A stretch of 64,000 nt of DNA, from the IMG/VR virus record IMGVR_UViG_3300030390_002309, positions 1 to 64,000 of that record. One strand, written 5' to 3'. Origin of the DNA: a virus. Positions 7,709 through 59,237 of the stretch are shown piece by piece. How positions within the stretch are numbered: the first letter of the stretch is position 1; the number at the start of each line of letters is the position of its first letter. The notes under the pieces are model-generated. The model made no database searches. It was not told where the DNA came from and saw only the letters and a program-made list of their open reading frames with translations. The translations under genes and the position numbers were made by a program.

Positions 7709-10700
7709 CTAACGGTTAAAATTAATTTCAGAGTATCCATTAACTTTTTTGATTTCAATCAATTTATCTACTATATCTCTCATAGCATCTATATGAGAAA
7801 TACACATTAAAAATCCAAATTGAGATTTTAAATAATCAAATAGTAAGAACATTGAATTTAAGTTATCAGAATCCAATACCCCAAATCCTTCATCAATTGC
7901 TAAGAAGTTTGGTCTTGGTAAATTTGATACATTAATTAAAGAAGTTCTAATAGCTAATGATGAAATAAACTTTTCCATTCCGCTAGTTAATTCTAATGGC
8001 CAATAATTATCATCATCGTATACAATATGTGCATTTATATTTTTGCCATCTGTATGTAATACAATTGTAAATTCAACAACTTGATTAAGTATGTTATTAA
8101 TTTCTGATTCTATTTGTGGTAATGCTTTTGTTATTAAGTGATATGGCACCCCATCTCTATTAACAGCTTTCTGATAATATTCATATCCAGAATATTGTTG
8201 TTCTAATTCTTTTAACCTGTCTATACCTCCCTGAGCATCGCTCTTTGTCTTTTCTGCCATTTTTAGTTTGCCAGATAATTGTAACAAATTAGAATCTAAT
8301 TGCCCTAATTCTGTGTTTACAGTTGTTATCTCATCTCGAACTTCGGTTATTTCAGAATTTTTATTAATATTATATACTAAATTATCTTTTTGTTTTTGAG
8401 ACTTACTTAACTCTTTTCTTTTATCCTTAAGGTTATTTTGAATCGATTCTATTTCCCATTTAGTACTTTGTAAACCATGTTCCATTGTTACTAATGATTT
8501 TTCGTACCCCGTTAATAATGTTTCTAATGCATTTACAGCATCTAATTTTTCTTTTGGTTTATCTTGATGTTTAATTTTAACAATATTATCTTCAAAATGT
8601 TTAATGTCAAATTCTATAGCTTGTTCTTCATCAATTAATTTAGGTAAAAGGTCTGCAACTTCTTTGGTTTCTTTTAACCATGGATTAGCCATACAAAAAC
8701 TACAATCTTCGTCCCATTCATGTTTATCTAATTTAGATACCATTTTTTGGGCATGTTGAATTTTTAGTTGTTTCATTTTTAGATCGTTATTTAATTTAAT
8801 AACATTATCTTTATAGTCTTTTAATTTAACAATTAAATTTTCTAATTGTGCCTTATCAATTTTATTTATCTTTTGATTTGTCTCTTTAATTAATTTATTT
8901 TGACTTTTAATTAATTCTTTTTGTTGATCTCTATTTAATCTTGCATTTCCTACATCATCATTTAATTTAGTAATTTTATATTTAATATCATCTGGATCAT
9001 CTAATGTTTCGTCAACCTTTTTTAGTTCTTTGGTCATATTAAAAATAATATCATTAAGATTTGTCTTCATTTCTTCATGTTCTACCTTATCTAATTTCAT
9101 TTGTTCATATGATCCAGTATATTGAGTAATTACGTCATTTGCTCCTGATAAGTCGGTCGAGAAATCTTTTCTTTTATACTCTCTAATTAATGCAGCAGTT
9201 TCTCTAATATCTTCATGCCCGATACTATATAACTGTTCAAATATATCAATATCTAAAAATTGTGATAATAACTCTTTTCTTTCTCTCTGACTTTTGTCGA
9301 TAAACCCAGTATTGTTATTTTGTAATGATAATGCAGTTAATACAAAATCATCATACGTGCCTAAATATTGCTGTATTATTTTATTTGTAGAATCTCGTTG
9401 GTCGCCATTTAAGTTTTCTTCGTTACCAGAAGAATCAATTCTCCAAAAATTAACATTTACTTTAACATGTCCATTTCCGTGCTTTTTAGCCTTACGTTCA
9501 ATAAAGTAAGTATACTTGCCTAACTCAAATTCGAACTTACATTGGAAGTTAGATTTTTTATTATTCAATACATGTTTAGCTTTTTTAGTTCGACTACATT
9601 TATCAAAACACGCGAATGACAATGCATCTAACAACGTTGATTTACCAGATGCATTAGGAGCAAATAATCCATATAACCCATGCATATTTGTAAAATCAAT
9701 AACATTATTTGGTCCATAACTAAACATATTTGAAAATTCAAATTTCTTAGGCAACCATGTAATATTTCTAGTTAATGTACTTGTAGGCAATTTACTGTGT
9801 ACTGTCCTATTAATATGTCTTATCGTATCTAACAATGTATCATCTAATGCATATTCATCTGATAAATATTCTGTGATAACTTTGTTTTGCCATTCTACAT
9901 CTCGTATGTTTCCAAAATTAATTTTCTTTTTTGAATCGGTTGTATTTAATGCATTTATTTTTTGTATTGATATATCTTGTACTTTATATTCAGATTTTAT
10001 TTTTGCTACAATCTCTTTTAATGTAGCTGAATCTGTATCTTTTACTTTTAATCTCAACCTAGGTCGTATTGGAATTTTATCACTTGGGTTTGTAATCTTA
10101 CCATTATCAATTTGATAAGTGTAATATCCATAATCATTTGGTATGTCAATAAATTCACATTTCTTAGTATCTAGATCCCATACCATAATTCCATGTCCTA
10201 AGGCCTCCCCATGATTTTGTTGTATCAATGAGCCAGCATATGCAATTGTTTTATCATCATTTAAAAATTGTGGTTTATGTATATCACCTAACAATACTAA
10301 ATCATGTCCTTCAAATATTTTTGTGGTAACGTGTGTATTGCTAAGTACGAATCCCGCATCTGTAGAAGCATTATGTACCGACCCATGATGTAATGCTATC
10401 TTATAATCTCCCTCAAAACTATCAGCTCTTACATAATCAATTGGTTTATCGAACACCGATAATACGTTAAAGTGTATTCCTGATATATAATATATACCAT
10501 TGTCTTTAAGATAGTGTAGGCTTGGATGATTTAAGGCTTTAACGATCGGACTTAGGGCGTCCAGTCTATAACTATTATTTAAGTTACAGTCATGATTACC
10601 AGTTATTATTAATGTAGGTGCTAAATCTGCTAATTTTTTAAAGAATTCAGATACAACTGCTATTAATTCTGGTGACATATCTGTCTTTGCATGTACGATA

Positions 10701-10870
10701 TCACCGGCTACATATATTACAGAATTATCTGTTTTTGTCTTTTTTATATAAGAATATAATCTTTTAAATACTAATCGATATTCTTTATGTCGTTTAACAT
10801 TTCTAACATGTACATCTGCTATATGATAGATTTTATCTATCTTTTCAATTCCAATATCTATAGTGCGCAT
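7709..10870 (-). CDS. Fused Mre11/SbcD nuclease - Rad50/SbcC ATPase (T4 gp47+gp46-like)
   Basis: N-terminal phosphoesterase motifs ADVH, GD, GNHD, HH, GDIH; Walker A APNASGKS; coiled coil with CSFC zinc hook; TSGME signature; Walker B LAIDEGFG; ISH H-loop. Confidence 0.92.
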   Translation of the reverse strand: MRTIDIGIEKIDKIYHIADVHVRNVKRHKEYRLVFKRLYSYIKKTKTDNSVIYVAGDIVHAKTDMSPELIAVVSEFFKKLADLAPTLIITGNHDCNLNNSYRLDALSPIVKALNHPSLHYLKDNGIYYISGIHFNVLSVFDKPIDYVRADSFEGDYKIALHHGSVHNASTDAGFVLSNTHVTTKIFEGHDLVLLGDIHKPQFLNDDKTIAYAGSLIQQNHGEALGHGIMVWDLDTKKCEFIDIPNDYGYYTYQIDNGKITNPSDKIPIRPRLRLKVKDTDSATLKEIVAKIKSEYKVQDISIQKINALNTTDSKKKINFGNIRDVEWQNKVITEYLSDEYALDDTLLDTIRHINRTVHSKLPTSTLTRNITWLPKKFEFSNMFSYGPNNVIDFTNMHGLYGLFAPNASGKSTLLDALSFACFDKCSRTKKAKHVLNNKKSNFQCKFEFELGKYTYFIERKAKKHGNGHVKVNVNFWRIDSSGNEENLNGDQRDSTNKIIQQYLGTYDDFVLTALSLQNNNTGFIDKSQRERKELLSQFLDIDIFEQLYSIGHEDIRETAALIREYKRKDFSTDLSGANDVITQYTGSYEQMKLDKVEHEEMKTNLNDIIFNMTKELKKVDETLDDPDDIKYKITKLNDDVGNARLNRDQQKELIKSQNKLIKETNQKINKIDKAQLENLIVKLKDYKDNVIKLNNDLKMKQLKIQHAQKMVSKLDKHEWDEDCSFCMANPWLKETKEVADLLPKLIDEEQAIEFDIKHFEDNIVKIKHQDKPKEKLDAVNALETLLTGYEKSLVTMEHGLQSTKWEIESIQNNLKDKRKELSKSQKQKDNLVYNINKNSEITEVRDEITTVNTELGQLDSNLLQLSGKLKMAEKTKSDAQGGIDRLKELEQQYSGYEYYQKAVNRDGVPYHLITKALPQIESEINNILNQVVEFTIVLHTDGKNINAHIVYDDDNYWPLELTSGMEKFISSLAIRTSLINVSNLPRPNFLAIDEGFGVLDSDNLNSMFLLFDYLKSQFGFLMCISHIDAMRDIVDKLIEIKKVNGYSEINFNR

Positions 10871-12364: not shown

Positions 12365-14152
12365 TTAGTAGTCCCAACGAACAATGAAGTTCATATCAAT
12401 ATCTGGATTCTTTTGTATAGGTTGGGCCATCTTAGCTGTGGCTACCATCTCGGCTTTATCATTATATAAACCAATTGTTGTAATATATGGTTTTAATGTT
12501 CCGGATACAAATAAATTTTTACGTAATTCACCCGGGGGTAATGTTGTTTGACTTGCATCACACACATCTCCATTTGTTACTGGGCGGAATGTTGATGTAG
12601 GATTCATTGTAACATTAAATTGATCTTTTGGTACACGAACTAAACATTCATTTTCATATATTGTATGAGTTCCACGATATTTAACATCCCATATATTTCC
12701 AAAAATACCTGAACCAGAATTATGTTTAGGCAAAACTGATGTTGCAACGGCTTGACCATTCTTATAAAATACATTGCCGGCCACATTGGTTTGGTAACAC
12801 GAAGCTGACATATAATGATTATTTCCTAAAGATACTATTGCCTCATTATTTACAGCATAATCATACATTCTTATTTCTGCAAACGATTGATTCATGCCAT
12901 CAAAACGATCGGCATTTGCATTTCCAATCACTAAATCTGATGTATTAGAAGTAAAGTCTGGCAATGTAGCGTGTTCACCACTAGACCCTGTTATACCATT
13001 AACAAATACATCTAATTTGGAACCAGAATTTCTAACAGTTATATGATGCCATCCTAAAGGGTCACCCGCCACTGCACCAGATGTTGCAAAGGCAGCAATT
13101 TTTCCATCACTTGCTCCAAAACTATATACTACTGCATTACCCGATATTTGTGACGTTAAATTGATCGGCGTACGTATACCAGTTTCTGCTAAATTTTGTG
13201 CAGTTGTAAGAGCAGTGAGTAATGAAATATTATTTGGATTATTATTAACAGTACGTAACTTACGTTTTCCATCAACACTATCTAAAAATATTTCTTCTTT
13301 CACACCCCATTTGGACATTACACATTTTTTTGAGGTATCATTATTCTTATGCCATAATGATATTGTCCAATCATCACAACGACCGAATCTATCAAACTTA
13401 GTATTATGTGGTATTCTAATATGGCTACCTTGTGCACCTGTCAAAGAAATAGCAAGCCCTGAATCAGTTCTTGGTTGAGCACTACTAGTAACCTCAATAC
13501 CTGTAACAACATTGATAGAATTTTCTACAGTTGCAATCTTTTCTACTTTATTTAATTTGTAGGAAATTGTATTTTGAAATGATCCTATAGACTCATAGTC
13601 ATTAAATTGTTTATATAAATCATTAAATGACATGTAAAAGAAATTTCTACTACTTGATGCAAACTTTTTTGAATCAATTAATGGGTCTACTAAGTTACCA
13701 TTACCATCATCTGTTAAGTATGTATACGTATCTCCAATTGATGATGTTACTTGGAATGTTCCGTGTTTAATTTTTTCTCCTACTTGGCCATATGGTGCAG
13801 TAAATAACGAAGACGAATACCACAATAATCTTTGTTGTTTATCGATGTCTATAAAATCGGCAGCAAATGCTGGATTATTATTACGATAATATTTGTGATG
13901 AATTGCATTCCATACTACATGTTGATTGGTATTATCATCTGTATTAACAGGATATAATCTAGTACCAACTCCTAGTCCAGTATCTGAAAATATATGTGGA
14001 GTACTTTTTTGGTAAATTGCATTATGACGAAAATATCCATCGTTATTAGTAAAATTAGTGGATGTTACGTTATAATGCTTATAAGCTTTTACCGGCCTTT
14101 GCTGGTAATCATTTGCCTTGATAGGCTGAAATACTGACGGTATAATTGGCAT
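12365..14152 (-). CDS. Virion structural protein with LamG/ConA-like domain
   Basis: WTISLW...WHHITV...VFVNG...EIRMYDYA LamG pattern; C-terminal YITTIGLYN..AKMAQP shared with the neighbouring gene. Confidence 0.65.
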   Translation of the reverse strand: MPIIPSVFQPIKANDYQQRPVKAYKHYNVTSTNFTNNDGYFRHNAIYQKSTPHIFSDTGLGVGTRLYPVNTDDNTNQHVVWNAIHHKYYRNNNPAFAADFIDIDKQQRLLWYSSSLFTAPYGQVGEKIKHGTFQVTSSIGDTYTYLTDDGNGNLVDPLIDSKKFASSSRNFFYMSFNDLYKQFNDYESIGSFQNTISYKLNKVEKIATVENSINVVTGIEVTSSAQPRTDSGLAISLTGAQGSHIRIPHNTKFDRFGRCDDWTISLWHKNNDTSKKCVMSKWGVKEEIFLDSVDGKRKLRTVNNNPNNISLLTALTTAQNLAETGIRTPINLTSQISGNAVVYSFGASDGKIAAFATSGAVAGDPLGWHHITVRNSGSKLDVFVNGITGSSGEHATLPDFTSNTSDLVIGNANADRFDGMNQSFAEIRMYDYAVNNEAIVSLGNNHYMSASCYQTNVAGNVFYKNGQAVATSVLPKHNSGSGIFGNIWDVKYRGTHTIYENECLVRVPKDQFNVTMNPTSTFRPVTNGDVCDASQTTLPPGELRKNLFVSGTLKPYITTIGLYNDKAEMVATAKMAQPIQKNPDIDMNFIVRWDY

Positions 14153-14171
14153 ATCATCTTACTAATTTAAT

Positions 14172-15455
14172 TTAGAAGTCTAATTTAACTTTAATAAGAG
14201 CTTCTCTCGTATAATTTTTTAATAATGGTTGAGATAATTTAGCTGTTGCTAACAATTCTCTTCTTCCATTATATAATCCAACGGTTGTTATATATGCTTG
14301 AGGATCTTGTATCATAGTTTTGAAAAATAACTCTCCTAACGACCCTGTAACAAAAGAAGGATTATTAGAATAATTATATTCTGCATTCTTAACTCTAACA
14401 AAATAATAAGTTGATTTCACTTGTTCAGATGATCTAGCTTGAATACCACCATTTGTTCCAGAATCTGTTAAGTTATCTGACCCACTTAATGATGTAAATA
14501 TTTTCATTGCATTTTCACCTTGAACACCGGAGCCTGTAACTGAATTAAAATTAACACCACCTAATGATGTATCTTTATTTAATTGTTCGCCATTTAAAAT
14601 TGCTACACCATGTTGTGGATATAATAAACCATAATATACTGGTGATGTTGAACTATGAATAACTGTACCTTCATCAATTGAACCAGAAACTAGATTATAT
14701 ACCAATCCACCTTCTGTTACACTTCCTCCTGATGATAAAGATGAATCATCAATGATCTGGATAAAATTACTTGTTCCTGCTAATTTAACATTTGAACCGG
14801 TATGAGCAGAATTAGGATGTTCTGAAACAATTCCACTAGGAGCTGATCCAGATAATTGTGCTAACGATAATTCAAAATTCCCCGGATCTAATTTTTCTCT
14901 AACTCTAGATCTATTAAAGTTTAATATGTAAATCTCATTTGTATCTACTCCGTTAATTGTAAACTTCTTATCATTAGGTGCTAACAATAACTGTGCATAT
15001 TGTTTATATATTGCTCTTGTAGGAGTATCATTATTAAGATTACCTGTTAAATCTTTAGAACCTGATCCAGCAAAATGTCCATATGCTACAGATAGTTCTG
15101 AATTGGCATTTGAAGTTGAACTAGGATCACCTGTTGAAAATACTTCTTGGAAATATGTTTTTTGAGTGGAAGTTAAATTTGAAGAAGTAAACATAGAAGT
15201 TAAACTACCAGTATTGCCCGCAAACAATCCTCTTGTTACAGTTTCAATATTATTAGGTAATACATCATCAGTAGGATCAAAGTCAGTAAATATACGTCCT
15301 AATCTCTGACGTGCTTTTGCTTGCTCACGCTCTCTGATAATTTGATTAGCTAATTGTCTAGCTAAGTTCTCAACCTGAGATGTTGCAGAGACTGGATTTC
15401 TTCGTCTAAATGCTACTGGTCCTCTTCTACTTACTTTTCTATTGTATGTTGCCAT
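14172..15455 (-). CDS. Putative baseplate/tail structural protein
   Basis: C-terminal YITTVGLYN.RRELLATAKLSQP; located in the structural operon. Confidence 0.55.
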   Translation of the reverse strand: MATYNRKVSRRGPVAFRRRNPVSATSQVENLARQLANQIIREREQAKARQRLGRIFTDFDPTDDVLPNNIETVTRGLFAGNTGSLTSMFTSSNLTSTQKTYFQEVFSTGDPSSTSNANSELSVAYGHFAGSGSKDLTGNLNNDTPTRAIYKQYAQLLLAPNDKKFTINGVDTNEIYILNFNRSRVREKLDPGNFELSLAQLSGSAPSGIVSEHPNSAHTGSNVKLAGTSNFIQIIDDSSLSSGGSVTEGGLVYNLVSGSIDEGTVIHSSTSPVYYGLLYPQHGVAILNGEQLNKDTSLGGVNFNSVTGSGVQGENAMKIFTSLSGSDNLTDSGTNGGIQARSSEQVKSTYYFVRVKNAEYNYSNNPSFVTGSLGELFFKTMIQDPQAYITTVGLYNGRRELLATAKLSQPLLKNYTREALIKVKLDF

Positions 15456-15470
15456 TTCTATTTCCCTTTA

Positions 15471-16142
15471 TTATGATATTGCCGTATTTGCTGATGTAGC
15501 AGTTGTTGCAATCTCAACTTTTTTAACCGTTAATGTTACAGACGCTCTACCACCAGTCTCATTACCAATAAATAATATTGTAATTTGTTGATCTGCTGAT
15601 AACAATTCTTTTGCAGTTATTTCAAATTGCGTACCGGATACTGTAATTGATTGGGCTGCTTCTGAATCACCTATAAATTGTGGCACAGATGCAGCAGAAT
15701 TCAAAGCTCCTCTAGTTGCAACTATATCAGCGACATCTGAATCAGATAAAATTGCTGTATATCCAAATCTTCTATTACCGCCTCCAAAATTAACAGTTGA
15801 TGGAGTAATTATAGTACTTTCATTTGCATTTAATTCAATATTGTTTTGTGCAACTCTAACAACAGGAATACGTGCAGTGCCTTTTGGTAATGTAACAAGT
15901 TTATATTTTAGCATTTGAGTTTCATCTGCTAATGCTTCTACAACAGGCATATTTTCTATAGCCGCGCCGTAATATGCAGTACCTAATGGATGTTCTGGAT
16001 TATATAAGTCATAATCTATTTCATCATCTGCTAATGCAAATTGTGTAATTTTAAATTCGTCTCTACCTCTTGCTAAAAGTTCTCTACCTTTTTTAGTAAG
16101 AATTGCATCGACCGTGATTGTTGAGTTGTTTAAGTATCCCAT
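15471..16142 (-). CDS. Putative tail-fibre attachment / baseplate protein
   Basis: N-terminal ILTKKGRELLA...FKITQFALAD resembles tail-collar-fibre N-terminal domains. Confidence 0.5.
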   Translation of the reverse strand: MGYLNNSTITVDAILTKKGRELLARGRDEFKITQFALADDEIDYDLYNPEHPLGTAYYGAAIENMPVVEALADETQMLKYKLVTLPKGTARIPVVRVAQNNIELNANESTIITPSTVNFGGGNRRFGYTAILSDSDVADIVATRGALNSAASVPQFIGDSEAAQSITVSGTQFEITAKELLSADQQITILFIGNETGGRASVTLTVKKVEIATTATSANTAIS

Positions 16143-16183
16143 GTTATTCCCTATCTTTTTAATAAATATGCTTATGCATAAGT

Positions 16184-19100
16184 TTATCTAACTTCTAAAT
16201 TACCTGGATTTGTTGAATTTGGTTGATTATTAAATATCAACGTATTCGGATTAGTTTCAAACACTTCAACTACAGGTTTTTGTCCAAGTGCCATAATCGT
16301 TGTAGGTAAATTTATACCAGGTCCAATCAACCTACAACCGTCATATTTTTGATTCTCTGTCATTTGAATAAAGTCGTCCATATATCCCACTTCATCTAAA
16401 CTTCTTGAGTAATTATATTTACTAGGAACTCCCATTCCTAATGACCTACTAACTTCGGTAAATAAATTCCTAGTTCGTTTATCTAACTCTATACTTCCAG
16501 AATAATGTAATTTATCTAGACTAAAAATACTACTAGGCCTAGGTGTTAAAATAACACTTCCGGTAGGAGAGAATGTCAAAGGAGATAATGTACCTGTAAT
16601 TTCCATTGGCAAGTTTAACGCAGTTGCTGCAACTGGATCTCTTTGATATGGAAAGAATTTGTATATATGTTTATATATAGTAGCCTTATAAGGATCACCA
16701 CTAGTTAATATATGCATATTTGCAAGGTAATTACCTGTATCAGAATATCCACTACTTCCTACATTATATACTTGTACTGTATCTGTTACATTTATAGGAG
16801 AATCAATACTAGCCGTTAATAATAAGGTATCTCCTGAAACATCTTTAACTGGATCTTCTATACGACCATCATATTGAGGATTTGTAATTACTGGTTTTTT
16901 TGTTAATCTAACTTTTGCTCTTTCTAATGCATGCGGCTCAACCAAAAGTCCCATAGACTCATCAATACGTTCTGGCAATAATTGTTTTATTTGATTGAAT
17001 AGTGAATAATCAAATTGACTAAACACCCTTAGATATGCATTAATATCATTCTTATCAGAATATTTTTTCCAATACTCTTTTGAGAAGTGAGTTAAATCTG
17101 GATATTCAAATGTAAACTCATGATCTGGATCTCCAACATAATTATCTAACGTTACATCACCTATGTGATTAAATATTTCTTTATTGATTTGATCGGCTGC
17201 TGAATAAAATAAACCTAATTTATTTGTATCAATTGGAGCACGATCAAACCTAGATTTTTCTGCGGACGTTCTAGGCGAAAGTCTTCGTACTAATTCATTC
17301 TCTTCTAATCTAATTTTTTGTGACCGAGGAACATTTCCTCCTAACGAAACTCCTTGTACATAATATGTTTCTTCTACTGGCTCATAATTACCACGCTGTA
17401 CATTTGTCGGAATTGGAAAGTTTGACATTGTAGCGAAAGTACTACCCGATACTATAAAATTATCATATGGTAGTTGTGCGTCAACTATTGTTTGTGCAGG
17501 ATGTGATGATGATATTACATGATATGTTGAAACAGAATGATCAACAGCATTCAAATCAGTACCTAAAGGATAATGTCTTATTAATGTATCAAATGATGAT
17601 GTAGGATCAAGTCCGGACACATATGATGTAGGATTTGTTGTATGTAAATCAAATGCATTTTGTCCTATATCTTCTAGCCATTCTCTATATTCTTGCATCG
17701 AACCTGAATACATTATTATATCTGGTGTATTGTCATTAGAAAAAGATATAGAATTATCTTCTGCTACAAATCTTCTTAAATTTGTATTTACTTGAAACTG
17801 GTCTCTTGTAGATCCAATACCAGGATATCCACCCAAATATGCTTGTCTATTATCACTATCATTTGGCATTGCATTCCATCCATACCTATGTCCATTAAAT
17901 GTTGGCGTATAAGATGCACTAGCTCGATGGATAATTTTATCATCTATATAATCTGATGCTTGTTGTACTTGTATATGATATGTAGTATTTAAGTTTGTAT
18001 CTATATTATAAATTCCGGCATCGGATCCTGTTGCTTGCCAAAACCATCTTAAATTCCAAAAATTACCATCAAATAAAGGTACCCATTCTGTCGAACCTGT
18101 TGCCGGTTGCATATTAGCCATACCCTTACCATGGGAGTAAACAATTCTACCATACTGATCTGATCCAGAATATGAACCTGTATATTGTATTGCTATTTGA
18201 GAATTAATTCTTTCATCTGTTGACGAATAGCAATTTGTATGTGTATACAATAACATGTTTTGTTTGGTTCCTGGCCTAAATCTAAACTCCCTTGTTTGTG
18301 GAGGAATATCATCACCAGAACTTAAAAACGGCCTTACAAACCCCCATGTGCCAATATCTGTTGTATAATCTCTTACACCATGTTGTATCCTAGGAGCAAC
18401 TTCACTATTTGTTTCAGCAGCGTCGCCCGTTTGGATAAATTGTAATGCATATGAAAATCTGTCTTCAATTAACGTTGGAGCATCTTCTTGTACTTTAGGT
18501 CCTCCATATTCTCTTATACTCAATAAAGTTTGAGGAATACCATATGTATTCATTAACGCTTTAACTGATCTTGCAGTACCTTTTGTTTTAAGTAAGTATG
18601 GTAAGTTATTAACTATCCTTCTCCAAACTTCTGTTGTAATTTCTTCATCCGGCTTTGAAAATAAAGAACCGGTAGTTGCATATTCACCTGATCCAGAATG
18701 TATACCTAATTTATATTGCCATAACTGTGATGCCTGATTTCCATTTTCTAATTTCCATCCTAATGACTCTGCTATTTGATATAATGTATCCTTACTTTGA
18801 CCTAATTTAGGATGTTCTTCTGGTTTATATATTTTTGTCAAGTTTTCAATATGAGTATATAATATATCATAATGATGTCCAATCATATTAACAAATAATT
18901 CATATTCACTATTATTTGAATCTAATCTAATATGCTCTGGTATTGACCTTGTTAATGACTTATTGTTTTCAGTATCATAAAGAGAGGCAGAAGAATGCCA
19001 CCCAGTATACCATTCAGTTGCTATACTTGAAGTTGAAGGGTGTAAATATTGTTTACTACCAGATAAGTATTTAGGAAATGATTCTAAACGATAATGATCA

Positions 19101-20341
19101 GACCCTAAAAATCCTCCTTCGGCTGCATAAATTCCATCTTTGTTATTATTATCAGAATATGTAGTATGGTCTGTAAATAAACTAGATGTAGAATCATTAT
19201 ACAACCATCTTTCGAATCCATCAAAATTACCAATTACATCATTTTGTCTTTCTTGATTTGTAGTTATATTTCCTTGTAATGCATTAGCATCTTCACCAGT
19301 TGCATTACGTAATATTTCAATACGTCCGTCATAATATTCAATCAATTCTAACTTATACTTGAAGTTGGCCAATCTTTCTGCTGCCGATGAAAAATGAATA
19401 AAATTTTGAAATCCGGAATAATCTATATTTACTGCTTGGCCTAATGATCCGGAAAATATTCTATCAACTATTAATTGTGAAGTGGAAGTATTAGAAGAAA
19501 GTAAAGAGTTCCAAGTTTCAAAATCTGTTTCTGTTATAGTACCTTTTGATACATCAATATCAAAATTTGGACCTAATAATTCTCGGCTCTCACCTCCTTT
19601 AGCTCCTGGACCTGCTAATGATATATTATCAATATATGCATCTGATAATTGCTCTATTGTCCATAACTTTTGTTTTTCAAAAATATTATCTGGTAAAGGT
19701 TTATATAGCCTAGCAACAAAGTCATTTTCAGATTGCCATTCTTTTTGATTGATGATTTTTAATATTTGATTTTTGCCTAAGTTAAGAGCAATATCATCTG
19801 ATAAAGGTCTTTCTATGACCGCACCTATTATAGGATTGCCACTCTCATCATATATAATATTATCTTCAGCATCTCTCTCATATATTTTTTCTGCATATTG
19901 TCCTGACCCGAAACTTTCAATATATGATTTAACATCTAAATCTGCATCCGGAAATGCTTGTATCCATACTTCACGACGATCATCTGATATTTCTTTTATC
20001 CAAAGTCCTTGTTCTTCCTTAGACCCTAATAAATCTTTATATACATTAATTACAACTTCAAACTGGCCTCTTTCAATCCCTAATGATTGACAAGCCTTAC
20101 CATAATTAATATATATCTGACCATTTTTTACTTCAAAGTCTTCAATACAGCCACCGGCAATATAATTTGATTCAGACCCAATTGTATATAAATGTAATTC
20201 TACGACAGGTATTTGTTCAGGATTAATACGTTTAAGATCTAACTGTAATATGTCTAAATCGTCTTGATTCCATACAATGCCTCGTACTTGGCCATTGGTC
20301 TCTTGTATTTCTTCTATATTTGAAAATCTATCTAATGCCAT
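16184..20341 (-). CDS. Large baseplate wedge-like protein (1385 aa)
   Basis: LPYLLKTKGTARSVKALMNTYG resembles the P2 gpI / T4 gp7-type wedge KGT motif; baseplate context. Confidence 0.6.
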   Translation of the reverse strand: MALDRFSNIEEIQETNGQVRGIVWNQDDLDILQLDLKRINPEQIPVVELHLYTIGSESNYIAGGCIEDFEVKNGQIYINYGKACQSLGIERGQFEVVINVYKDLLGSKEEQGLWIKEISDDRREVWIQAFPDADLDVKSYIESFGSGQYAEKIYERDAEDNIIYDESGNPIIGAVIERPLSDDIALNLGKNQILKIINQKEWQSENDFVARLYKPLPDNIFEKQKLWTIEQLSDAYIDNISLAGPGAKGGESRELLGPNFDIDVSKGTITETDFETWNSLLSSNTSTSQLIVDRIFSGSLGQAVNIDYSGFQNFIHFSSAAERLANFKYKLELIEYYDGRIEILRNATGEDANALQGNITTNQERQNDVIGNFDGFERWLYNDSTSSLFTDHTTYSDNNNKDGIYAAEGGFLGSDHYRLESFPKYLSGSKQYLHPSTSSIATEWYTGWHSSASLYDTENNKSLTRSIPEHIRLDSNNSEYELFVNMIGHHYDILYTHIENLTKIYKPEEHPKLGQSKDTLYQIAESLGWKLENGNQASQLWQYKLGIHSGSGEYATTGSLFSKPDEEITTEVWRRIVNNLPYLLKTKGTARSVKALMNTYGIPQTLLSIREYGGPKVQEDAPTLIEDRFSYALQFIQTGDAAETNSEVAPRIQHGVRDYTTDIGTWGFVRPFLSSGDDIPPQTREFRFRPGTKQNMLLYTHTNCYSSTDERINSQIAIQYTGSYSGSDQYGRIVYSHGKGMANMQPATGSTEWVPLFDGNFWNLRWFWQATGSDAGIYNIDTNLNTTYHIQVQQASDYIDDKIIHRASASYTPTFNGHRYGWNAMPNDSDNRQAYLGGYPGIGSTRDQFQVNTNLRRFVAEDNSISFSNDNTPDIIMYSGSMQEYREWLEDIGQNAFDLHTTNPTSYVSGLDPTSSFDTLIRHYPLGTDLNAVDHSVSTYHVISSSHPAQTIVDAQLPYDNFIVSGSTFATMSNFPIPTNVQRGNYEPVEETYYVQGVSLGGNVPRSQKIRLEENELVRRLSPRTSAEKSRFDRAPIDTNKLGLFYSAADQINKEIFNHIGDVTLDNYVGDPDHEFTFEYPDLTHFSKEYWKKYSDKNDINAYLRVFSQFDYSLFNQIKQLLPERIDESMGLLVEPHALERAKVRLTKKPVITNPQYDGRIEDPVKDVSGDTLLLTASIDSPINVTDTVQVYNVGSSGYSDTGNYLANMHILTSGDPYKATIYKHIYKFFPYQRDPVAATALNLPMEITGTLSPLTFSPTGSVILTPRPSSIFSLDKLHYSGSIELDKRTRNLFTEVSRSLGMGVPSKYNYSRSLDEVGYMDDFIQMTENQKYDGCRLIGPGINLPTTIMALGQKPVVEVFETNPNTLIFNNQPNSTNPGNLEVR

Positions 20342-20344
20342 ATC

Positions 20345-23119
20345 TTAAACTCTCGGTACATAATTATCAAAACTACACCCTGGTACATATTGATTTAAAA
20401 TATCTTGAGGACCTTTTGGCCATACCAATCCATATTTCCTTTTCTTCTTCCAGAAGTTACCAGACTTATAAACTCTTTTCCTTAAATACTGAATAGCATC
20501 ATACTGTCCTTTTAACTTCTTACTTAGATAAATATCTATCTCAGCCTTTAATTCAGTTCCTAATGCATACAATCCGGAATTATTTAATTCGTCTACTAAT
20601 GTCTGGAGTGATAATAAATATTCATATATTGATGTAAATTCTTCTACATTAGTAGATTTCATTATTGCATTATCTATTGAATCCATTTGATCATGAAATT
20701 GTGCAATTGCGTCTGCAATAAATGGAATGGCAGTATCTGCAGCATCTGCTGCTTGCTTAAATCCTTCTACATGATCATCTACTTCATTTAATATACAGGC
20801 CTGTAAATACCATTGGTCATCAACAAATCTCCATGGCGGTAAATCATATTCATCAGCCGGAACTTCTCCCATTAATGCATCTGTCAATATTAATGCGCCT
20901 GCTAGTGCTGCAACACCTATTGTAATAGGATTGGTTGCTAATGCACCTAATGTTGCTCCTAGGGTTGGTCCGGCAGCCGCAACTGTTACAGAAGGTAATA
21001 AACTTATTCCAGATGCTATTAAACTTGCTTCAAATGCAGCTACTCCTGCTGCTGCTGCTGCAACCCCAATTTGGCCAGCTAAATAAACTCCAGCTCCGGC
21101 TGCTACTATTGAACCAGCACCTAATCCTGCTTTTGCTCCTCCAGATGCCCATGCCATAAATTTGTCACGCTTAACCGTCTTCATCCATTTATATTTTTCA
21201 ACTAATCTTTTTTCTTGTGACTCACTTAATGAGGCTTTAATACCAACTCTTCTGCTACATACCTTAAACAACTTACCATCACTAGTTTTAGTTTTTATCT
21301 TATCCTTACCAAACCATGTCTTCTTTTTAACATACTTCCATGAACCATTTTTAGATATCATTATTCGATATAAAGGACTTTTAGGACCTAAATTCTTAAC
21401 AACATACTCTCCATAGTCTGCAGGAAGCGCATCAAACTGAGTTTTAATACTTACAATATTAGAAACAATTGATGGCCATAATTCAAAAATTTGTTCTTTA
21501 ACAGCATCTATCTGTTCCTGTTCAAGTGCCTGAGCAATTAAATCTTGATATTGTTTTTGTGGATAATATTTTATAGAACCTGCAGGCTCATAAGGTAATA
21601 GGTATTCAATACCAAATGGATCACCTCCGTTAGAGAAGTTATCTAAATATTCTCTATATTCTGCTTCATCTAATCCACTTCTTCCATCATCGTCAGCTTC
21701 TACAATATGAGGAAATGCATTCCATAATGGCTCAACTTTACGATACATGTCAGAATTTTTAATTGGATCTTGTACGTCATTTGTAAACGGTGTTCCTCCA
21801 TTAGGTTGTACTACTACAACTCCTCCGCCTTCTATTAATATTTGAATATAACCAGTTTCACTATAACGGCCTTGGCCAGGTTCATATTCACTCAAGTCAA
21901 TTTCTTGCATGTATGCATATAACTTCATAGTTCTGCCGGAAGTTACACGCTTCCAGTGACCATTAATCATCATACGTAAATTTAAAACAGCATCATCTGA
22001 TGCAATTGACGTGCCCATGCCTACCTCTTTGCCGACATAATCAGGAGAAGGCCAATCTGCAATAATCATCTTGCCTTCATGAATCTCTCTTAATCTTTCA
22101 CGATGTGTTTGTTTTTGAAATACTCGATCAAAATATTTATCTTCCGGATCTTCAATTACATATCTATCGGCTGGTAACTCGTTGCCATCTTCATCAACTG
22201 GATTACGGCCGTTAACAGCACGCATATTTTCAGGCTTGATATAATCTCCCGGATCTCTTACGAAAGGTTCCTTAGGTCTATATCCACTTCTAAATCTAAT
22301 AGATTGAGACCAATCACTATCACGTGTTGGCATTGATCGTGCACGAAACTCTTCTAATGCACTAACATCTCCGTCATCGTCGTCATCTAAATCCGCACCA
22401 TCATAATCTACCTCATCACTTGTCTCACCATCTAATAATAAATCAAACTTTTTAATTTGTTCGGAAGTTGCTTCTTGAATTATATCATAATTTGCACCAC
22501 GTTCAACTAACATTACTTCTAATGTTTTATATGTTGGTATAGGATATGCAGTGCCATTAAGAATAAAGAATACACAAAATGGGTTAAACTCATCATCTTC
22601 ATCATCGGATATATTTTGAGGACCTCTATTAATATATGCATCATGTATGTCTCCTAAATCAACATCTTGATTAACTAAAAACAATCCCGTCTCTTTAACT
22701 TCTGCTACCACTTCTATATCTTCTTCTTCAGAATCTTCAAAATATTCCCATTCTTCATCAATCAAGTCGTCTAATATATCTTCATCTACAGTAGGATATG
22801 ACTTCAATAAAGAATATTTTGCAAACTCATCTTTTTCAGTCGTTACATCTAATACATTTTTTCCGTTACGAATTGCTGGGTTACCTATTTTAGCTGACGT
22901 CGGCGCCTTTCCGTCTTTAAAAGCTTCAAACGCTTGTATATCTTTTGATGGAGGTCTTAATCTATCAACCGAATATAATATATCATCTGGATATTCATCT
23001 TTCATAATATCTAAGAGCATCTCATTCAAGTCTGGCTGAATACTCTCTTCTTTTGAAGATGCGGCAGTATATCTGTTATTCGCAATCTTTTCATTAGATT
23101 TATCTTTTTCACTTGCCAT
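20345..23119 (-). CDS. Acidic 924-aa protein with a long Ala/Gly hydrophobic segment; function unknown
   Basis: Long ORF within the baseplate operon; D/E-rich N-half; about 95-aa almost uncharged segment. Confidence 0.6.
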   Translation of the reverse strand: MASEKDKSNEKIANNRYTAASSKEESIQPDLNEMLLDIMKDEYPDDILYSVDRLRPPSKDIQAFEAFKDGKAPTSAKIGNPAIRNGKNVLDVTTEKDEFAKYSLLKSYPTVDEDILDDLIDEEWEYFEDSEEEDIEVVAEVKETGLFLVNQDVDLGDIHDAYINRGPQNISDDEDDEFNPFCVFFILNGTAYPIPTYKTLEVMLVERGANYDIIQEATSEQIKKFDLLLDGETSDEVDYDGADLDDDDDGDVSALEEFRARSMPTRDSDWSQSIRFRSGYRPKEPFVRDPGDYIKPENMRAVNGRNPVDEDGNELPADRYVIEDPEDKYFDRVFQKQTHRERLREIHEGKMIIADWPSPDYVGKEVGMGTSIASDDAVLNLRMMINGHWKRVTSGRTMKLYAYMQEIDLSEYEPGQGRYSETGYIQILIEGGGVVVVQPNGGTPFTNDVQDPIKNSDMYRKVEPLWNAFPHIVEADDDGRSGLDEAEYREYLDNFSNGGDPFGIEYLLPYEPAGSIKYYPQKQYQDLIAQALEQEQIDAVKEQIFELWPSIVSNIVSIKTQFDALPADYGEYVVKNLGPKSPLYRIMISKNGSWKYVKKKTWFGKDKIKTKTSDGKLFKVCSRRVGIKASLSESQEKRLVEKYKWMKTVKRDKFMAWASGGAKAGLGAGSIVAAGAGVYLAGQIGVAAAAAGVAAFEASLIASGISLLPSVTVAAAGPTLGATLGALATNPITIGVAALAGALILTDALMGEVPADEYDLPPWRFVDDQWYLQACILNEVDDHVEGFKQAADAADTAIPFIADAIAQFHDQMDSIDNAIMKSTNVEEFTSIYEYLLSLQTLVDELNNSGLYALGTELKAEIDIYLSKKLKGQYDAIQYLRKRVYKSGNFWKKKRKYGLVWPKGPQDILNQYVPGCSFDNYVPRV

Positions 23120-23120
23120 A

Positions 23121-24278
23121 TTAGTTCACTACCTTAAAGTAAAAGTCATCAAATGTTTGTACATCATATGCCCTTCTACATGTTAACTTTATTTTATAAT
23201 ACCTTTCCGGCATAAATGAATCCATTCTTAAATTAAAGAAATTTCCATCACCGTCATTACTTATTTTTGTTGTACTATTTGAAAATATTTTTTCATCTTT
23301 TATAATAACATCATTTGTTACTGAATCAATTATTTCATATGAACTTGATATAGGCAGGATATCTTCTGTTATAAAAAATGATGATGTTGCATATGACTTA
23401 ACAGGAAATTCAGGACGAACTCCTAATCTAAATCGAGCTTCTTCTGTTGTTCTATATTCTGATTTGATATTTTTAATATAAGGAATATATGTGTTAGCTA
23501 AAATTCCTGTAGTCGATGTTATACTCTGATCATCCCAGCATACTTCTAATTTTGGAACAAATATTGTATGAGACTCTCTACCAAAAAACTTTATAGACCC
23601 GCCTAAATCTCCGTTTATTTCATCGGAATAAGGTCTTTTAATAATGAAACCATTGTTAGATATATTAGAATTTACCCATTGCTTCACTACGTCAGTAACA
23701 TCTATTCTAATATCAGGTGATTGGTTTTGGAATGATTGAGAAGCCTCATACCCTGATCCTGTAATCCATGTTCCTCCTCCTAATTCGTTACTTGTGCCTG
23801 CTGAAGTATTTTCACTATGTGCATCACTAACGTTCCAAGCTATACCACTTTGTGCAACAGCATCACCAGATCTATTAAACCAAGATGCGCCAACTTTTGT
23901 TGGAGGAGTATCACTATCATATCCAGCACCATTATCCCATGACTCTGATATAGGATATGCTTTAATTGTATAGGATTGTAATAAATCGGACGCATCCGAA
24001 GCATGTAAATTTAAGAATACAGAGCCTGATGATATATGACCTGTATCCAATGATGGTATTTTACCGTCAGTAATTGATTGTCCTAAACTAGTTATTTCAG
24101 TACCAAAATCAAGTAAAATTCTACTATTATATGTATTAGCATCTATTAAGCCAGTCTTACTATTTACCGACCCAGATGTTATTTTTTCTAGCTCTAATAT
24201 TTCATCAATACCTGTATTACGTTCTGGGTATTGTTCGTATATTGTAGTATCTCTTTCTGCGTAATATATTCTATTCAT
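23121..24278 (-). CDS. Structural protein, DNRLRE/CBM96-like domain
   Basis: DTTIYE.YP..NTG, SRILLDF, IDVTDVVKQW..NNGFIIK, PKLEVCW pattern. Confidence 0.5.
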   Translation of the reverse strand: MNRIYYAERDTTIYEQYPERNTGIDEILELEKITSGSVNSKTGLIDANTYNSRILLDFGTEITSLGQSITDGKIPSLDTGHISSGSVFLNLHASDASDLLQSYTIKAYPISESWDNGAGYDSDTPPTKVGASWFNRSGDAVAQSGIAWNVSDAHSENTSAGTSNELGGGTWITGSGYEASQSFQNQSPDIRIDVTDVVKQWVNSNISNNGFIIKRPYSDEINGDLGGSIKFFGRESHTIFVPKLEVCWDDQSITSTTGILANTYIPYIKNIKSEYRTTEEARFRLGVRPEFPVKSYATSSFFITEDILPISSSYEIIDSVTNDVIIKDEKIFSNSTTKISNDGDGNFFNLRMDSFMPERYYKIKLTCRRAYDVQTFDDFYFKVVN

Positions 24279-54640: not shown

Positions 54641-55069
54641 TCATGATATCATTGCATTTAATGGTGGTACTTTATCATATTCATTCTTATATTCTTTTAA
54701 AAGATTATGTTCTAATCCTTTAACATATGATGTCTCACATTTGTATCCTAATACCTTACTAGTTACAATAGGCATAGGTAATACATATACCCAAATACTT
54801 TCTACATCCTTTATATGTTGTCTAATACGGTTATTTGTTATATTAGATATACATCTATAGCCTTTATGGAATCTCTGAGTTAAGTTTTGTGTTTCTCCTA
54901 TCTTTAATAACTCACCCTTATCATTTGTCATTACATATACGCCTGGCTGGTTATCTGATTTGATAGGATTACTAGGATACATTATTTCAATACCTTGCGT
55001 ATATTTAGATGATTTAATCATACATGCATATAATTCAAATCCTTTGTTTATGTAATATTCTTTATTCAT
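54641..55069 (-). CDS. GIY-YIG-like nuclease
   Basis: PGVY...LKIGETQNLTQR...LE..LL..Y.....VPPLN. Confidence 0.65.
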   Translation of the reverse strand: MNKEYYINKGFELYACMIKSSKYTQGIEIMYPSNPIKSDNQPGVYVMTNDKGELLKIGETQNLTQRFHKGYRCISNITNNRIRQHIKDVESIWVYVLPMPIVTSKVLGYKCETSYVKGLEHNLLKEYKNEYDKVPPLNAMIS

Positions 55070-55082
55070 ATTATTATTTTTG

Positions 55083-55156
55083 TGATCGAGAAAGGATTCG
55101 AACCTTTGACCTATTGCTTAGAAGGCAATTGCTCTATCCAACTGAGCTACTCGACC
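55083..55156 (-). tRNA. tRNA-Arg(UCU), CCA not encoded
   Basis: GGTCGAG/CTCGATC acceptor stem, AGCTCAGTTGGATAGAGC D arm, ATTGC-CTTCTAA-GCAAT anticodon arm, AAAGG-TTCGAAT-CCTTT T arm. Confidence 0.95.
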
Positions 55157-57496: not shown

Positions 57497-58018
57497 TTAA
57501 TAACTATTTTTCATCCTACCACCTAATGGATTACCCACTTCTTGATAGTAACAATTGTAACATAATAACCTTAAGTTATCTCTTATATGATTTGTCCTAT
57601 CTCCATCAATCCAATCTAGTAATAATGGCACTGAATAATCTGATACCCTTCTTACACAATAACCACATGAGTTACATTCTTCTTCAAGAATAGCATTTTT
57701 AAGTAATCTTATCTTTAATCTGCTATGTGGATAATTAGGATACTTACCTTCTAGTATATCTAATAAACCATAATGGCCTCTTAGTCTAGGCTTTGTTGCT
57801 CTAGGTATTCCTTTTCCAGCCTTGTTCTTATGTAGTTCAAACAATGTTTTACCAGTTTCTGAATCTACATATAGTTTAGAATATTTCCTAAATGCTTCAT
57901 ATGAAACTTTAAGGAAACGAGCTGCGCCTGCACAAGATTGAGTATTGACCATTGCATATCGAATCTCAGACTCTGATATGTTCATTGGTGGTCTACCCTC
58001 TCCTGGCTTGAACGGCAT
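57497..58018 (-). CDS. HNH-like zinc-finger protein with N-terminal HTH (degenerate active site)
   Basis: CNSC...LDWIDGDRTNHIRDNLRLLCYNC. Confidence 0.65.
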   Translation of the reverse strand: MPFKPGEGRPPMNISESEIRYAMVNTQSCAGAARFLKVSYEAFRKYSKLYVDSETGKTLFELHKNKAGKGIPRATKPRLRGHYGLLDILEGKYPNYPHSRLKIRLLKNAILEEECNSCGYCVRRVSDYSVPLLLDWIDGDRTNHIRDNLRLLCYNCYYQEVGNPLGGRMKNSY

Positions 58019-58022
58019 TATA

Positions 58023-58331
58023 TTATCCTTTTAGTAATTCTTTTGAATCATCTACTAAGTTGCGACTATTATAAAATTTATCTCTAGCCTTTGCTCTCAT
58101 AGACTCAACATATGTTTTTTCGTCCTTAGATAATGAACTCCAAAATGATTCAAACTCTCCACCTGGAGTATTCATATATCTAGTATATGCATCTTCAGTT
58201 TTGTCATCATTCATATGCTTAGCTAAAACTGTACCTAAAATAGTTGATGCTTTAGGTTGAACTGATATTCCGTTCTTCCCCATTGCAGTATACCATTCGT
58301 CCATAATCTGTGTTACTTTGTCTTTACTCAT
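58023..58331 (-). CDS. Hypothetical protein
   Basis: ORF with upstream AAGGA. Confidence 0.55.
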   Translation of the reverse strand: MSKDKVTQIMDEWYTAMGKNGISVQPKASTILGTVLAKHMNDDKTEDAYTRYMNTPGGEFESFWSSLSKDEKTYVESMRAKARDKFYNSRNLVDDSKELLKG

Positions 58332-58364
58332 AACTTATTCCTTTTTTTTATTATTTCCTCTATA

Positions 58365-58509
58365 TCCTCCGAAGCTTAAACGGCATGCTTCTTCAACCGT
58401 CGGTCTTGGGTGCTTAATTAAGCAGCCATCGCCATGTTAACATGTTCGCCTGTTATTGCGTTGATCTTCATTATATCCTTATCATCATGTCAAATACCTG
58501 TTCATCCCC
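58365..58509 (-). ncRNA. ssrA: tmRNA coding piece (5' acceptor strand + tag ORF GEHVNMAMAA*); 3' boundary approximate
   Basis: Starts GGGGATG-AACAGGTATTTGAC; ATAACA-GGC resume context; tag 58450-58418 ends in AA*; GCTTAATTAAGC hairpin at the stop. Confidence 0.88.
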
Positions 58510-58514
58510 ATTTG

Positions 58515-58586
58515 TAGCCCGACGGAGAATCGAACTCCGGTTACATGGATGAAAACCATGCGTCCTAACCACTAGACGACCGGGCC
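58515..58586 (-). tRNA. tRNA-Glu(UUC), CCA not encoded, nested in the tmRNA intervening segment
   Basis: GGCCCGG/TCGGGCT acceptor stem, GTCTAGTGGTTAGGAC D arm, CATGG-TTTTCAT-CCATG anticodon arm, CGGAG-TTCGATT-CTCCG T arm. Confidence 0.95.
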
Positions 58587-58600
58587 AATTTCCTACTTAG

Positions 58601-58660
58601 TGGAGATGGTGGGAGTCGAACCCACGTCCATTAATGCAGCTAATATAACTACTAACGATC
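58601..58660 (-). ncRNA. ssrA: tmRNA acceptor piece (T arm + 3' acceptor strand); 5' boundary approximate
   Basis: GGAC-GTGGG-TTCGACT-CCCAC-CATCTCC-A; CATCTCC pairs with GGGGATG giving G3.U70 and A73 (alanine identity). Confidence 0.88.
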
Positions 58661-58664
58661 ATTT

Positions 58665-58672
58665 ATAAATAT
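58665..58672 (-). promoter_or_regulatory. Putative late promoter ATATTTAT driving the tmRNA/tRNA unit (one of about 14 intergenic copies)
   Basis: Same motif found just upstream of many structural and late genes. Confidence 0.6.
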
Positions 58673-58673
58673 G

Positions 58674-59237
58674 CTACTTCAATCGTATATACTTCTTACC
58701 ACCTTTAAAATATATTGTACCAATTGGTATTTCATCTGTCAATGCCTTTCCTAACATATCATATGCTATATCATTATACCATCTAATACCATCTTCTTCA
58801 ATTACAAATCCAGGAATTCCTGTAGGAGTATTTCTCAACATTACAACCCATGTAAATAAATTGAAATCATATACTACCGAGTCACAGTAATTACACATCA
58901 TTATTGTTGAATCTAATTGATATATAAAAGCATCATAACATAATTTAACTGTATCTGATATTTGTATTAATGGAAATGAGTATGGATTATTTCCTTGACC
59001 TACATAACATGCAACATCATTACATGCAGTGAAGCTCCAATCTATTGCACCTACCATATTACCTATACCACCTGAACTTGGAGTTACAGTTAATGTTGTA
59101 TTTGGAAATATTGAATATGATAAAGAGTCACACCAATTATTAGTTTGTGCCTGTGACCTTGTTGACCATAATGTCAATACTGCTAGCCAAAATATAGCTA
59201 CTATAAAATAGCCTTTGTTCTTGTTAATTTTTTTCAT
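58674..59237 (-). CDS. Secreted Cys-rich protein with T9SS C-terminal-domain-like tail
   Basis: Signal peptide ...RSQA/Q; C-terminus TGI...YDMLGK...GTIYFKGGKKYIRLK. Confidence 0.55.
   Translation of the reverse strand: MKKINKNKGYFIVAIFWLAVLTLWSTRSQAQTNNWCDSLSYSIFPNTTLTVTPSSGGIGNMVGAIDWSFTACNDVACYVGQGNNPYSFPLIQISDTVKLCYDAFIYQLDSTIMMCNYCDSVVYDFNLFTWVVMLRNTPTGIPGFVIEEDGIRWYNDIAYDMLGKALTDEIPIGTIYFKGGKKYIRLK

Follow-up and report, generated by a model that had tools for sequence, protein, structure and literature searches.

A permuted two-piece tmRNA gene with a tRNA-Glu nested in its spacer in an uncultured marine phage

Results

A permuted tmRNA gene encloses a tRNA-Glu gene

We analyzed a 64,000-nucleotide (nt) stretch of viral DNA, hereafter the window, which comprises positions 1 to 64,000 of IMG/VR record IMGVR_UViG_3300030390_002309. 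An earlier reading made from the sequence alone (the sequence-only reading) had placed on its minus strand a circularly permuted two-piece transfer-messenger RNA (tmRNA) gene with a complete tRNA-Glu as intervening segment. Both elements are recovered by dedicated detectors and all coordinates of that reading hold on the minus strand. We consider it likely that the locus is a working phage two-piece tmRNA gene, belonging to a family confined to uncultured marine phages, and that tRNA-Glu(UUC) is carried as cargo in its spacer. Gene anatomy, conservation, covariation and presence in RNA libraries carry this reading. The parent record is a linear viral metagenome-assembled contig of 129,594 bases with 31.6% G+C that is ~73% complete.

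ARAGORN called a permuted tmRNA at 58327-58692 with the tag GEHVNMAMAA and with the tRNA-Glu nested inside. The Rfam model tmRNA_permuted (RF04321, which merges RF01849-51) matched 58660-58418 with 58.8 bits (E 7e-9, gathering cut-off 47 bits) over its full length (model positions 1-213), so that the order of acceptor piece, intervening segment and coding piece scores above the threshold of this model. The one-piece model RF00023 reached just 28.2 bits and matched the acceptor part only, and in the Rfam version searched the locus was not matched separately by the older models for the alpha, beta and cyano lineages. When the coding and acceptor pieces were joined in silico in normal order, a check that the sequence-only reading had proposed, ARAGORN called a standard tmRNA with the same tag. 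The nested tRNA-Glu scored 59.3 bits with the Rfam tRNA model RF00005 (cut-off 29 bits), and ARAGORN placed the anticodon ttc at position 34 within an intact anticodon loop, as expected of the complete canonical tRNA that had been claimed.

The permuted gene extends over 58660-58356 on the minus strand, the strand of all parts described here. Its 60-nt acceptor piece (58601-58660), delimited by the RF04321 alignment, ARAGORN and the covariation of helices 1-5, contains the helix 2 3' strands GATCG, TTATAT and ATTAATG, the T arm GTGGG/TTCGACT/CCCAC (58625-58609) and the 3' acceptor strand CATCTCC (58608-58602). The piece ends ...CATCTCCA with the discriminator A at 58601, after which the genome continues with CTA, not CCA. 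The intervening segment of 91 nt consists of a 14-nt spacer (58587-58600), which is both 3' trailer of the acceptor piece and 5' leader of the tRNA, the 72-nt tRNA-Glu with anticodon UUC (58515-58586), and a 5-nt spacer, CAAAT (58510-58514), that separates G1 of the coding piece from the tRNA-Glu discriminator. The tRNA ends GGGCTA with CAA next and has no encoded CCA. The coding piece (58356-58509, 3' end approximate), identified by Rfam, ARAGORN and covariation, opens with the 5' acceptor strand GGGGATG (58509-58503), followed by the 5' strands of helix 2. It continues with the tag frame GGC GAA CAT GTT AAC ATG GCG ATG GCT GCT TAA (58418-58450), which ARAGORN read as GEHVNMAMAA and stop in both the native and the de-permuted sequence, a stop-codon hairpin (58424-58411) and a single pseudoknot after the tag (58400-58371). 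The resume codon is thus GGC (Gly) and the tag ends Ala-Ala before the stop. The acceptor stem GGGGATG/CATCTCC pairs between the two pieces as a 7-bp helix with G3.U70 and discriminator A.

Pseudoknot 1 is present in most tmRNAs. There is no room for it here, as the distance from G1 to the resume codon is just 59 nt and the first acceptor-piece helix pairs right before that codon. The family described below seems to lack pseudoknot 1 and to have one pseudoknot after the tag.

The two pieces covary across a phage family

We searched the viral collection, the window's own record left out, with a pattern for the tag region. This yielded 115 loci, 103 of which ARAGORN called as permuted and 12 of which received no call. 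Family tags follow GE[HQ]V[EN][LM]AMAA, for example GEQVELAMAA, GEQVEMAMAA and GEHVEMAMAA, and GAQVEMAMAA occurs as well. The sequence-only reading had proposed that an acceptor stem with G3.U70 and three helix 2 pairings join the pieces. We examined this in an alignment of 107 distinct family sequences from viral and metagenome loci plus the window (108 in all), using as structure the RNAalifold consensus together with the GATC/GATC helix from the sequence-only reading. Over 38 pairs and 108 sequences, 97.2% of 4079 cells are paired as compared with 86.2% in 500 shuffles, none of which reached the observed value (0/500), and sliding the partners by 1-3 columns left 43-52% paired. Changes on both sides were observed in 20 of the 38 pairs against a shuffle mean of 12.5, again with 0/500 reaching it.

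These changes are found in every helix that joins the pieces. Acceptor pair 5:68 is UA in 53, CG in 49 and GC in 4 of the 108 sequences, while G3.U70 is kept in 108/108. Helix 2a contains pairs such as UA 49 plus AU 39 and UA 59 plus CG 34, helix 2b a pair that is CG in 59, GU in 35 and UA in 10, and the GATC/GATC helix a pair that is UA in 44, CG in 43 and AU in 13. Taken as a whole, helix 2 (helices 1-3) has 17 pairs, 14 of them with both-side changes, and 92-97% of its cells are paired. T-stem cells are 100% paired with two covarying pairs, and the stop-codon hairpin and the pseudoknot stem after the tag covary too. The window preserves every one of the 38 structural pairs. All four inter-piece helices (acceptor stem, 2a, 2b and GATC) are therefore supported far beyond chance, and the proposed pairing is kept and covaries in the 108 relatives.

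A search of ~185,000 species-representative genomes returned one family match, a short-spacer gene on a 15.4-kb contig (L304) whose bin is labeled Candidatus Nitrosopelagicus, a marine archaeon. The contig probably comes from a phage and was binned wrongly, a situation that PMC11915505 discusses for 'archaeal' tmRNAs. No member of the family was found in a bacterial genome among these ~185,000 representatives, so the family looks phage-borne.

The layout recurs with an identical tRNA-Glu

The sequence-only reading had suggested looking for the same gene order in metagenome contigs. Six contigs repeat the layout of the window with tag GEHVNMAMAA and tRNA-Glu. Their tRNA-Glu is identical in 6/6, with 0-4 differences in the tmRNA pieces. 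Within the 14-nt leader, which is variable among the six contigs, CCA directly follows the tmRNA discriminator in 4/6 where the window has CTA. In the tail of the upstream coding sequence (last ~60 nt), ~20 positions differ in 4/6 contigs. Judged from these sequences, the pattern is that of purifying selection on both RNAs.

A broader search with a generic pattern (tmRNA 3' end, tRNA T loop, GGGGNTG) matched at least 118 metagenome loci. Among the 118 matches listed, ARAGORN recognized a permuted tmRNA with nested tRNA in 42, and the remaining 76 are tRNA arrays, truncated loci or chance matches. The 42 nested cases among the matches listed correspond to 36 distinct genes, which carry tRNAs for Ala (20), Tyr (5), Glu (5), Asn (2), Asp (2), Arg (1) and Ala+Thr+Val (1). 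They occur both in the phage family described here and in genes with cyanobacterial-style tags. To go by these sequences, the nested-tRNA arrangement is not rare in nature.

The nested tRNA-Glu is probably functional. We also considered that it is a tRNA-shaped processing or decoy element that is neither aminoacylated nor used in translation, a view to which the two G.U pairs that can be read in its acceptor stem (1:72 and 7:66) lend some color. We judge this quite unlikely given the 59.3-bit score, the intact UUC anticodon loop, the standard ARAGORN call and the identity of the tRNA in six contigs. Codon use in the phage argues the same way. tRNA-Glu(UUC) and tRNA-Arg(UCU) are the only tRNA genes in the 129.6 kb, and both fit dominant codons: per 1000 codons, GAA is used 51.3 times versus 11.2 for GAG, and AGA, the dominant Arg codon, 23.4 times.

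RNA-library contigs cover the coding piece and a junction

Marine metatranscriptome runs contain parts of the stretch, and we compared four of them (X1, X3, X4 and X5) over 58000-59000. A 157-nt contig of run X3 aligns to 58356-58509 with no mismatch, and its end at 58509 coincides with G1 and the predicted RNase P site. Run X4 contains a 259-nt contig from a close strain that covers 58366-58565 and bridges the junction of tRNA-Glu and coding piece, as a precursor would. The contigs of runs X1 and X5 equal the upstream coding sequence with no mismatch, and the perfect-match contigs in X1, X3 and X5, not small word shares, indicate a marine habitat. Two further groups of RNA contigs were not counted as expression of the locus. 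Those at 58600-58634 have 2-3 mismatches and are probably other organisms' tmRNAs. Those at 58541-58586, with mismatches or adapter-joined foreign ends, are probably other organisms' tRNA-Glu. Positions lacking RNA coverage were given no weight.

The X4 contig also bears on whether the tRNA was joined into the tmRNA gene by chimeric assembly, as might be asked of any metagenome-assembled viral contig. Since six further metagenome contigs share the conserved layout and the same junctions, mis-assembly is excluded, and with an RNA-library contig bridging the tRNA/coding-piece junction such an artefact is next to impossible.

We likewise weighed whether the tmRNA is a decaying relic, disrupted by insertion of a tRNA-Glu that alone is functional. 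A relic would account for the low score of the one-piece model, for the lack of pseudoknot 1 in a family whose only pseudoknot follows the tag, and for our failure to see an acceptor-piece contig specific to this phage in the four runs. We hold it to be highly improbable. The pairs that are intact in the window are kept in the family by compensatory changes, the tag frame and stop-codon hairpin are conserved, the tmRNA pieces are near-invariant in six contigs while the flanking coding DNA diverges, and the coding piece is matched by an RNA contig.

A variable spacer in which the tRNA is probably optional cargo

Among the 108 distinct sequences the intervening segment is short (16-22 nt) in 72, of a two-hairpin type in 12, tRNA-Ala(UGC) in 17, tRNA-Glu(UUC) in 6 and a stem-closed 87-nt insert in 1, counts that are biased because the metagenome loci were picked by a pattern demanding a nested tRNA. 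In the viral set, which is free of this bias and leaves out the window's record, a nested tRNA occurs in 1 of 115 loci and is a tRNA-Ala. Acceptor stem, discriminator and G1 are all retained in the short-spacer genes, which argues that tmRNA maturation is independent of the tRNA. The sequence-only reading had held that excising a functional tRNA matures the tmRNA. The dependence that this implies does not stand, as 72 of 108 relatives have just 16-22 nt in this place. We regard the nested tRNA as optional cargo in a labile spacer that is cut out anyway.

A stronger form of the same dependence would make the nested tRNA a processing module that positions RNase P and RNase Z and without which the tmRNA does not mature. 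The proximity of the tRNA ends to the tmRNA ends (14 and 5 nt) and the exact conservation of this layout in six contigs would suit such a role, as would the minimum free energy fold of the precursor, in which the tRNA-Glu cloverleaf forms a closed domain directly inside the tmRNA acceptor stem. The short-spacer relatives speak against it, as do nested tRNA-Ala copies that are spaced differently (4-5 nt from the tmRNA discriminator and 11-12 nt from G1, against 14 and 5 nt for tRNA-Glu). In addition, the tRNA-like domain of the tmRNA is itself already an RNase P substrate, as it is, to our knowledge, in all tmRNAs. We therefore consider an obligate processing module very unlikely.

Cargo appears to have changed within the family. 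In a tree of the tmRNA columns, which rests on ~228 columns and whose topology was taken without support values, the Glu-bearing clade lies inside Ala-bearing genes, and Ala-bearing genes are found in several places among short-spacer genes. As a pattern of sequences this fits tRNA replacement and repeated gain or loss, and the tRNA-Glu of the window probably replaced a tRNA-Ala. Recombination via the conserved tmRNA halves is a possible route of spacer change. The stems of the nested tRNA-Ala copies are kept through compensatory changes, as read from the alignment.

Several details of the spacers may be added. The 14-nt leader before tRNA-Glu (…GTAGGAAATT) resembles the start of the nested tRNA-Ala (GGGGAATTAG…) in locus L002 and other tRNA-Ala loci and may be a remnant of the replaced tRNA-Ala. 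The two-hairpin spacers, 68-70 nt long (L004, L069, L080, L081, L083, L100, L101, L122, L142-L144 and L164), are built from a short hairpin that is present twice, for example ATTATAT...ATATAAT or ATTATATG...CATATAAT. Their stems change compensatorily between variants, and the same insert recurs in different tmRNA subclades. In L173 (89-418) an 87-nt spacer that received no tRNA call from ARAGORN is closed by a long stem, TAGTGGT...ACCACTA. This insert may be another kind of cargo.

Proposed expression and maturation of the locus

The gene lies directly downstream of a coding sequence on the same strand (open reading frame 58674-59237, 187 amino acids, stop TAG at 58676-58674), whose end at 58674 the sequence-only reading had given correctly. 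An exact copy of the promoter-like motif ATATTTATA (58664-58672, minus strand) is located 3 nt upstream of the acceptor piece, and a sigma-70-like site is found at 58742-58714. Most of the 108 family members have ATATTTATA conserved in front of the acceptor piece. Of its 23 copies in the 129.6-kb genome, 20 are on the gene strand, and 12 of these 20 end 1-30 nt before the start of an open reading frame. Strand and position are what suggest a promoter function for this motif.

We infer the promoter, the enzymes, the charging and the tagging in the following scheme. Transcription would start just downstream of ATATTTATA and give one precursor with the acceptor piece, 14 nt, tRNA-Glu, 5 nt and the coding piece. 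Host RNase P would cut 5' of tRNA-Glu and 5' of coding-piece G1, host RNase Z or exonucleases would trim 3' of both discriminator A residues, and the host CCA-adding enzyme would finish both 3' ends, a step that we invoke because neither CCA is encoded in the window. The tmRNA pieces would stay joined via the 7-bp acceptor stem, in which G3.U70 would serve as alanine identity pair, and via three helix 2 segments. The two-piece complex would be charged with alanine and, together with host SmpB, would tag stalled nascent chains with GEHVNMAMAA. In line with such reliance on the host, no member of the SmpB or CCA-adding enzyme families was found in the 129.6 kb. The released tRNA-Glu would read GAA, the commonest Glu codon of the phage. 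Relatives with a ~20-nt spacer would undergo the same cuts with no tRNA required. That one transcript gives three RNAs, as the sequence-only reading had supposed, is the most likely reading of an X4 contig that bridges tRNA and coding piece and an X3 contig that ends at G1.

A number of points weigh against a working gene of this kind. Assembled contigs show presence in an RNA library and cannot prove ends, strand or level, and an RNA library may also contain DNA. The missing acceptor-piece contig counts here as well. ATATTTATA is not over-represented by number in the window (10 copies versus 7.8 expected). No terminator was found after the coding piece, the only intrinsic-terminator hit being the tRNA D arm, which is spurious, and the 3' end of the coding piece is undefined because no terminator follows. 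The precursor does not fold more stably than shuffled sequence (z 0.29), so that the case for the tmRNA rests on covariation and not on thermodynamics. With no room for pseudoknot 1, tmRNA activity is assumed from the conservation of the gene. The bias in the spacer counts and the tree's basis of ~228 columns belong here too. Finally, the record is ~73% complete, so that a phage SmpB could be encoded in the missing part of the genome.

Origin of the permutation

The sequence-only reading had described the gene as an independent permutation of a Bacteroidota-type tmRNA. The tag of the window starts Gly-Glu, as does a Bacteroides tag attested in one preprint. This may be the case, but the claim goes beyond the evidence, as no bacterial genome among the ~185,000 carries the family and the profile comparison is weak. 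In this comparison, which is rough since the loci had been fetched for other reasons, a coding-piece profile of the family scored best outside the family with one-piece viral tmRNAs that have ...AMAA tags (~22 bits, 4/4 matching). Alpha-like permuted genes had a median of 4.9 bits (8/39 matching) and cyano-like ones 10.5 bits (4/14), the value within the family being 86. These profile scores hint that the family is set apart from the alpha- and cyano-type permuted lineages.

Two of the one-piece viral tmRNAs, in loci L007 (405-807) and L016 (404-808), have the tags GNTSYAMAA and GNTSLAMAA and are followed after 4-5 nt by tRNA-Glu(UUC) or tRNA-Met. This layout is a possible precursor for permutation by tandem duplication into a tRNA-bearing spacer. 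A fuller account can be built on it, in which the family arose by its own permutation: a one-piece phage tmRNA and the following tRNA were duplicated in tandem and the outer halves were lost, so that the nested tRNA would be original content. The halves would since then have acted as processing signals and homology arms through which co-infecting phages swap (Ala, Glu) or lose cargo. It draws on the one-piece AMAA tmRNAs, which precede a tRNA by 4-5 nt and best match the profile, and on the tRNA-Ala found at the same 4-5 nt offset in several subclades. We consider this history unlikely, if conceivable.

Phage context and neighboring genes

Baseplate genes on the contig are of the myovirus type. 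The nearest isolates by baseplate wedge protein are distant, namely Microcystis phage Mel-JY01 (49% identity) and the Flavobacterium immuto phages (38%), and neither an RF04321 match nor a permuted tmRNA was found in Mel-JY01 or immuto. A blastn search of the locus against the INPHARED isolate phages gave no match to the tmRNA pieces and matched only at the tRNA-Glu and T-arm part.

Genes of homing-endonuclease type neighbor the RNA genes of the phage. An HNH endonuclease-like open reading frame (57497-58018, minus strand, PHROG E 1e-13) lies two genes downstream of the tmRNA, and a weakly GIY-YIG-like one (54641-55069, minus strand) adjoins tRNA-Arg(UCU) at 55082-55156. Elsewhere in the window we note an open reading frame of 2513 amino acids (122-7663, minus strand) followed by an SbcC-like one of 1053 amino acids (7709-10870), and several of 385-1385 amino acids at 12365-24278 that are without PHROG match.

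Implications and comparison with known systems

No new mechanism of tmRNA biogenesis is revealed by this locus. It does suggest that a working tRNA can be housed in the spacer of a two-piece tmRNA gene without needing an additional promoter or additional processing signals, and it would show in a compact natural form how host tRNA enzymes make three RNAs out of a single precursor. More than 100 sequences with and without cargo form a natural series for the effect of cargo on tmRNA maturation, and the system should be easy to reconstitute in vitro. Annotation pipelines that discard a tmRNA call because it overlaps a tRNA will miss such genes.

tRNA clusters of large phages such as T4 are transcribed as polycistronic precursors that are cut by host RNase P. 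The predicted processing of our locus is alike in that several tRNA-shaped RNAs come from one precursor via host enzymes, and in both cases the tRNAs fit the codons of AT-rich phages. It differs from T4-type clusters in that one 'tRNA' is the split tRNA-like domain of a tmRNA, whose halves flank a true tRNA.

Two-piece tmRNA genes are found in Alphaproteobacteria, some Betaproteobacteria and marine cyanobacteria and are thought to stem from tandem duplication followed by loss of the outer halves (PMC3978253, PMC11915505; Keiler et al. 2000 and Sharkady and Williams 2004 as cited therein). The window shares with the bacterial two-piece tmRNA (RF04321) the order of the pieces, their attachment by acceptor stem and helix 2, and a break downstream of the tag. 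It differs in a tag that starts with Gly (GGC) and ends AMAA, in the 59 nt from G1 to the resume codon, and in its one post-tag pseudoknot.

The sequence-only reading knew of no description of this arrangement. In this it was mistaken, since phage permuted tmRNAs have been published and a spacer tRNA has been reported once, in 2025. Buchholz et al. 2022 (PMC9004378) list 53 ARAGORN calls of two-piece tmRNAs among isolate phages, mostly marine. Those of Melnitz, pelagimyophages and cyanophages resemble the window's gene as permuted tmRNAs of marine phages just downstream of a phage promoter. They differ in being of alphaproteobacterial or cyanobacterial type, some with a glutamine riboswitch, and no spacer tRNA is reported for them in the parts of that paper available to us.

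For one record, Nawrocki, Petrov and Williams 2025 (PMC11915505) describe as 'unique' a permuted tmRNA whose intervening sequence contains an intact tRNA-Ala gene; the record comes from an archaeal-labeled genome bin that the authors suspect of mis-binning. In the full-text literature as far as it was accessible we found no further description of a nested tRNA, and none in PMC4131195; the taxonomic breakdown in PMC11915505 may bear on novelty. An arrangement printed once as "unique" thus recurs in environmental phages. The record and the window are alike in having a complete, high-scoring tRNA gene in a segment absent from the mature tmRNA, and the sole genome-collection match of the window's family is also from a marine archaeal bin. 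In contrast to that record, the tRNA of the window is Glu(UUC) and not Ala, its carrier is clearly a phage, and the gene can be placed in a family of more than 100 sequences.

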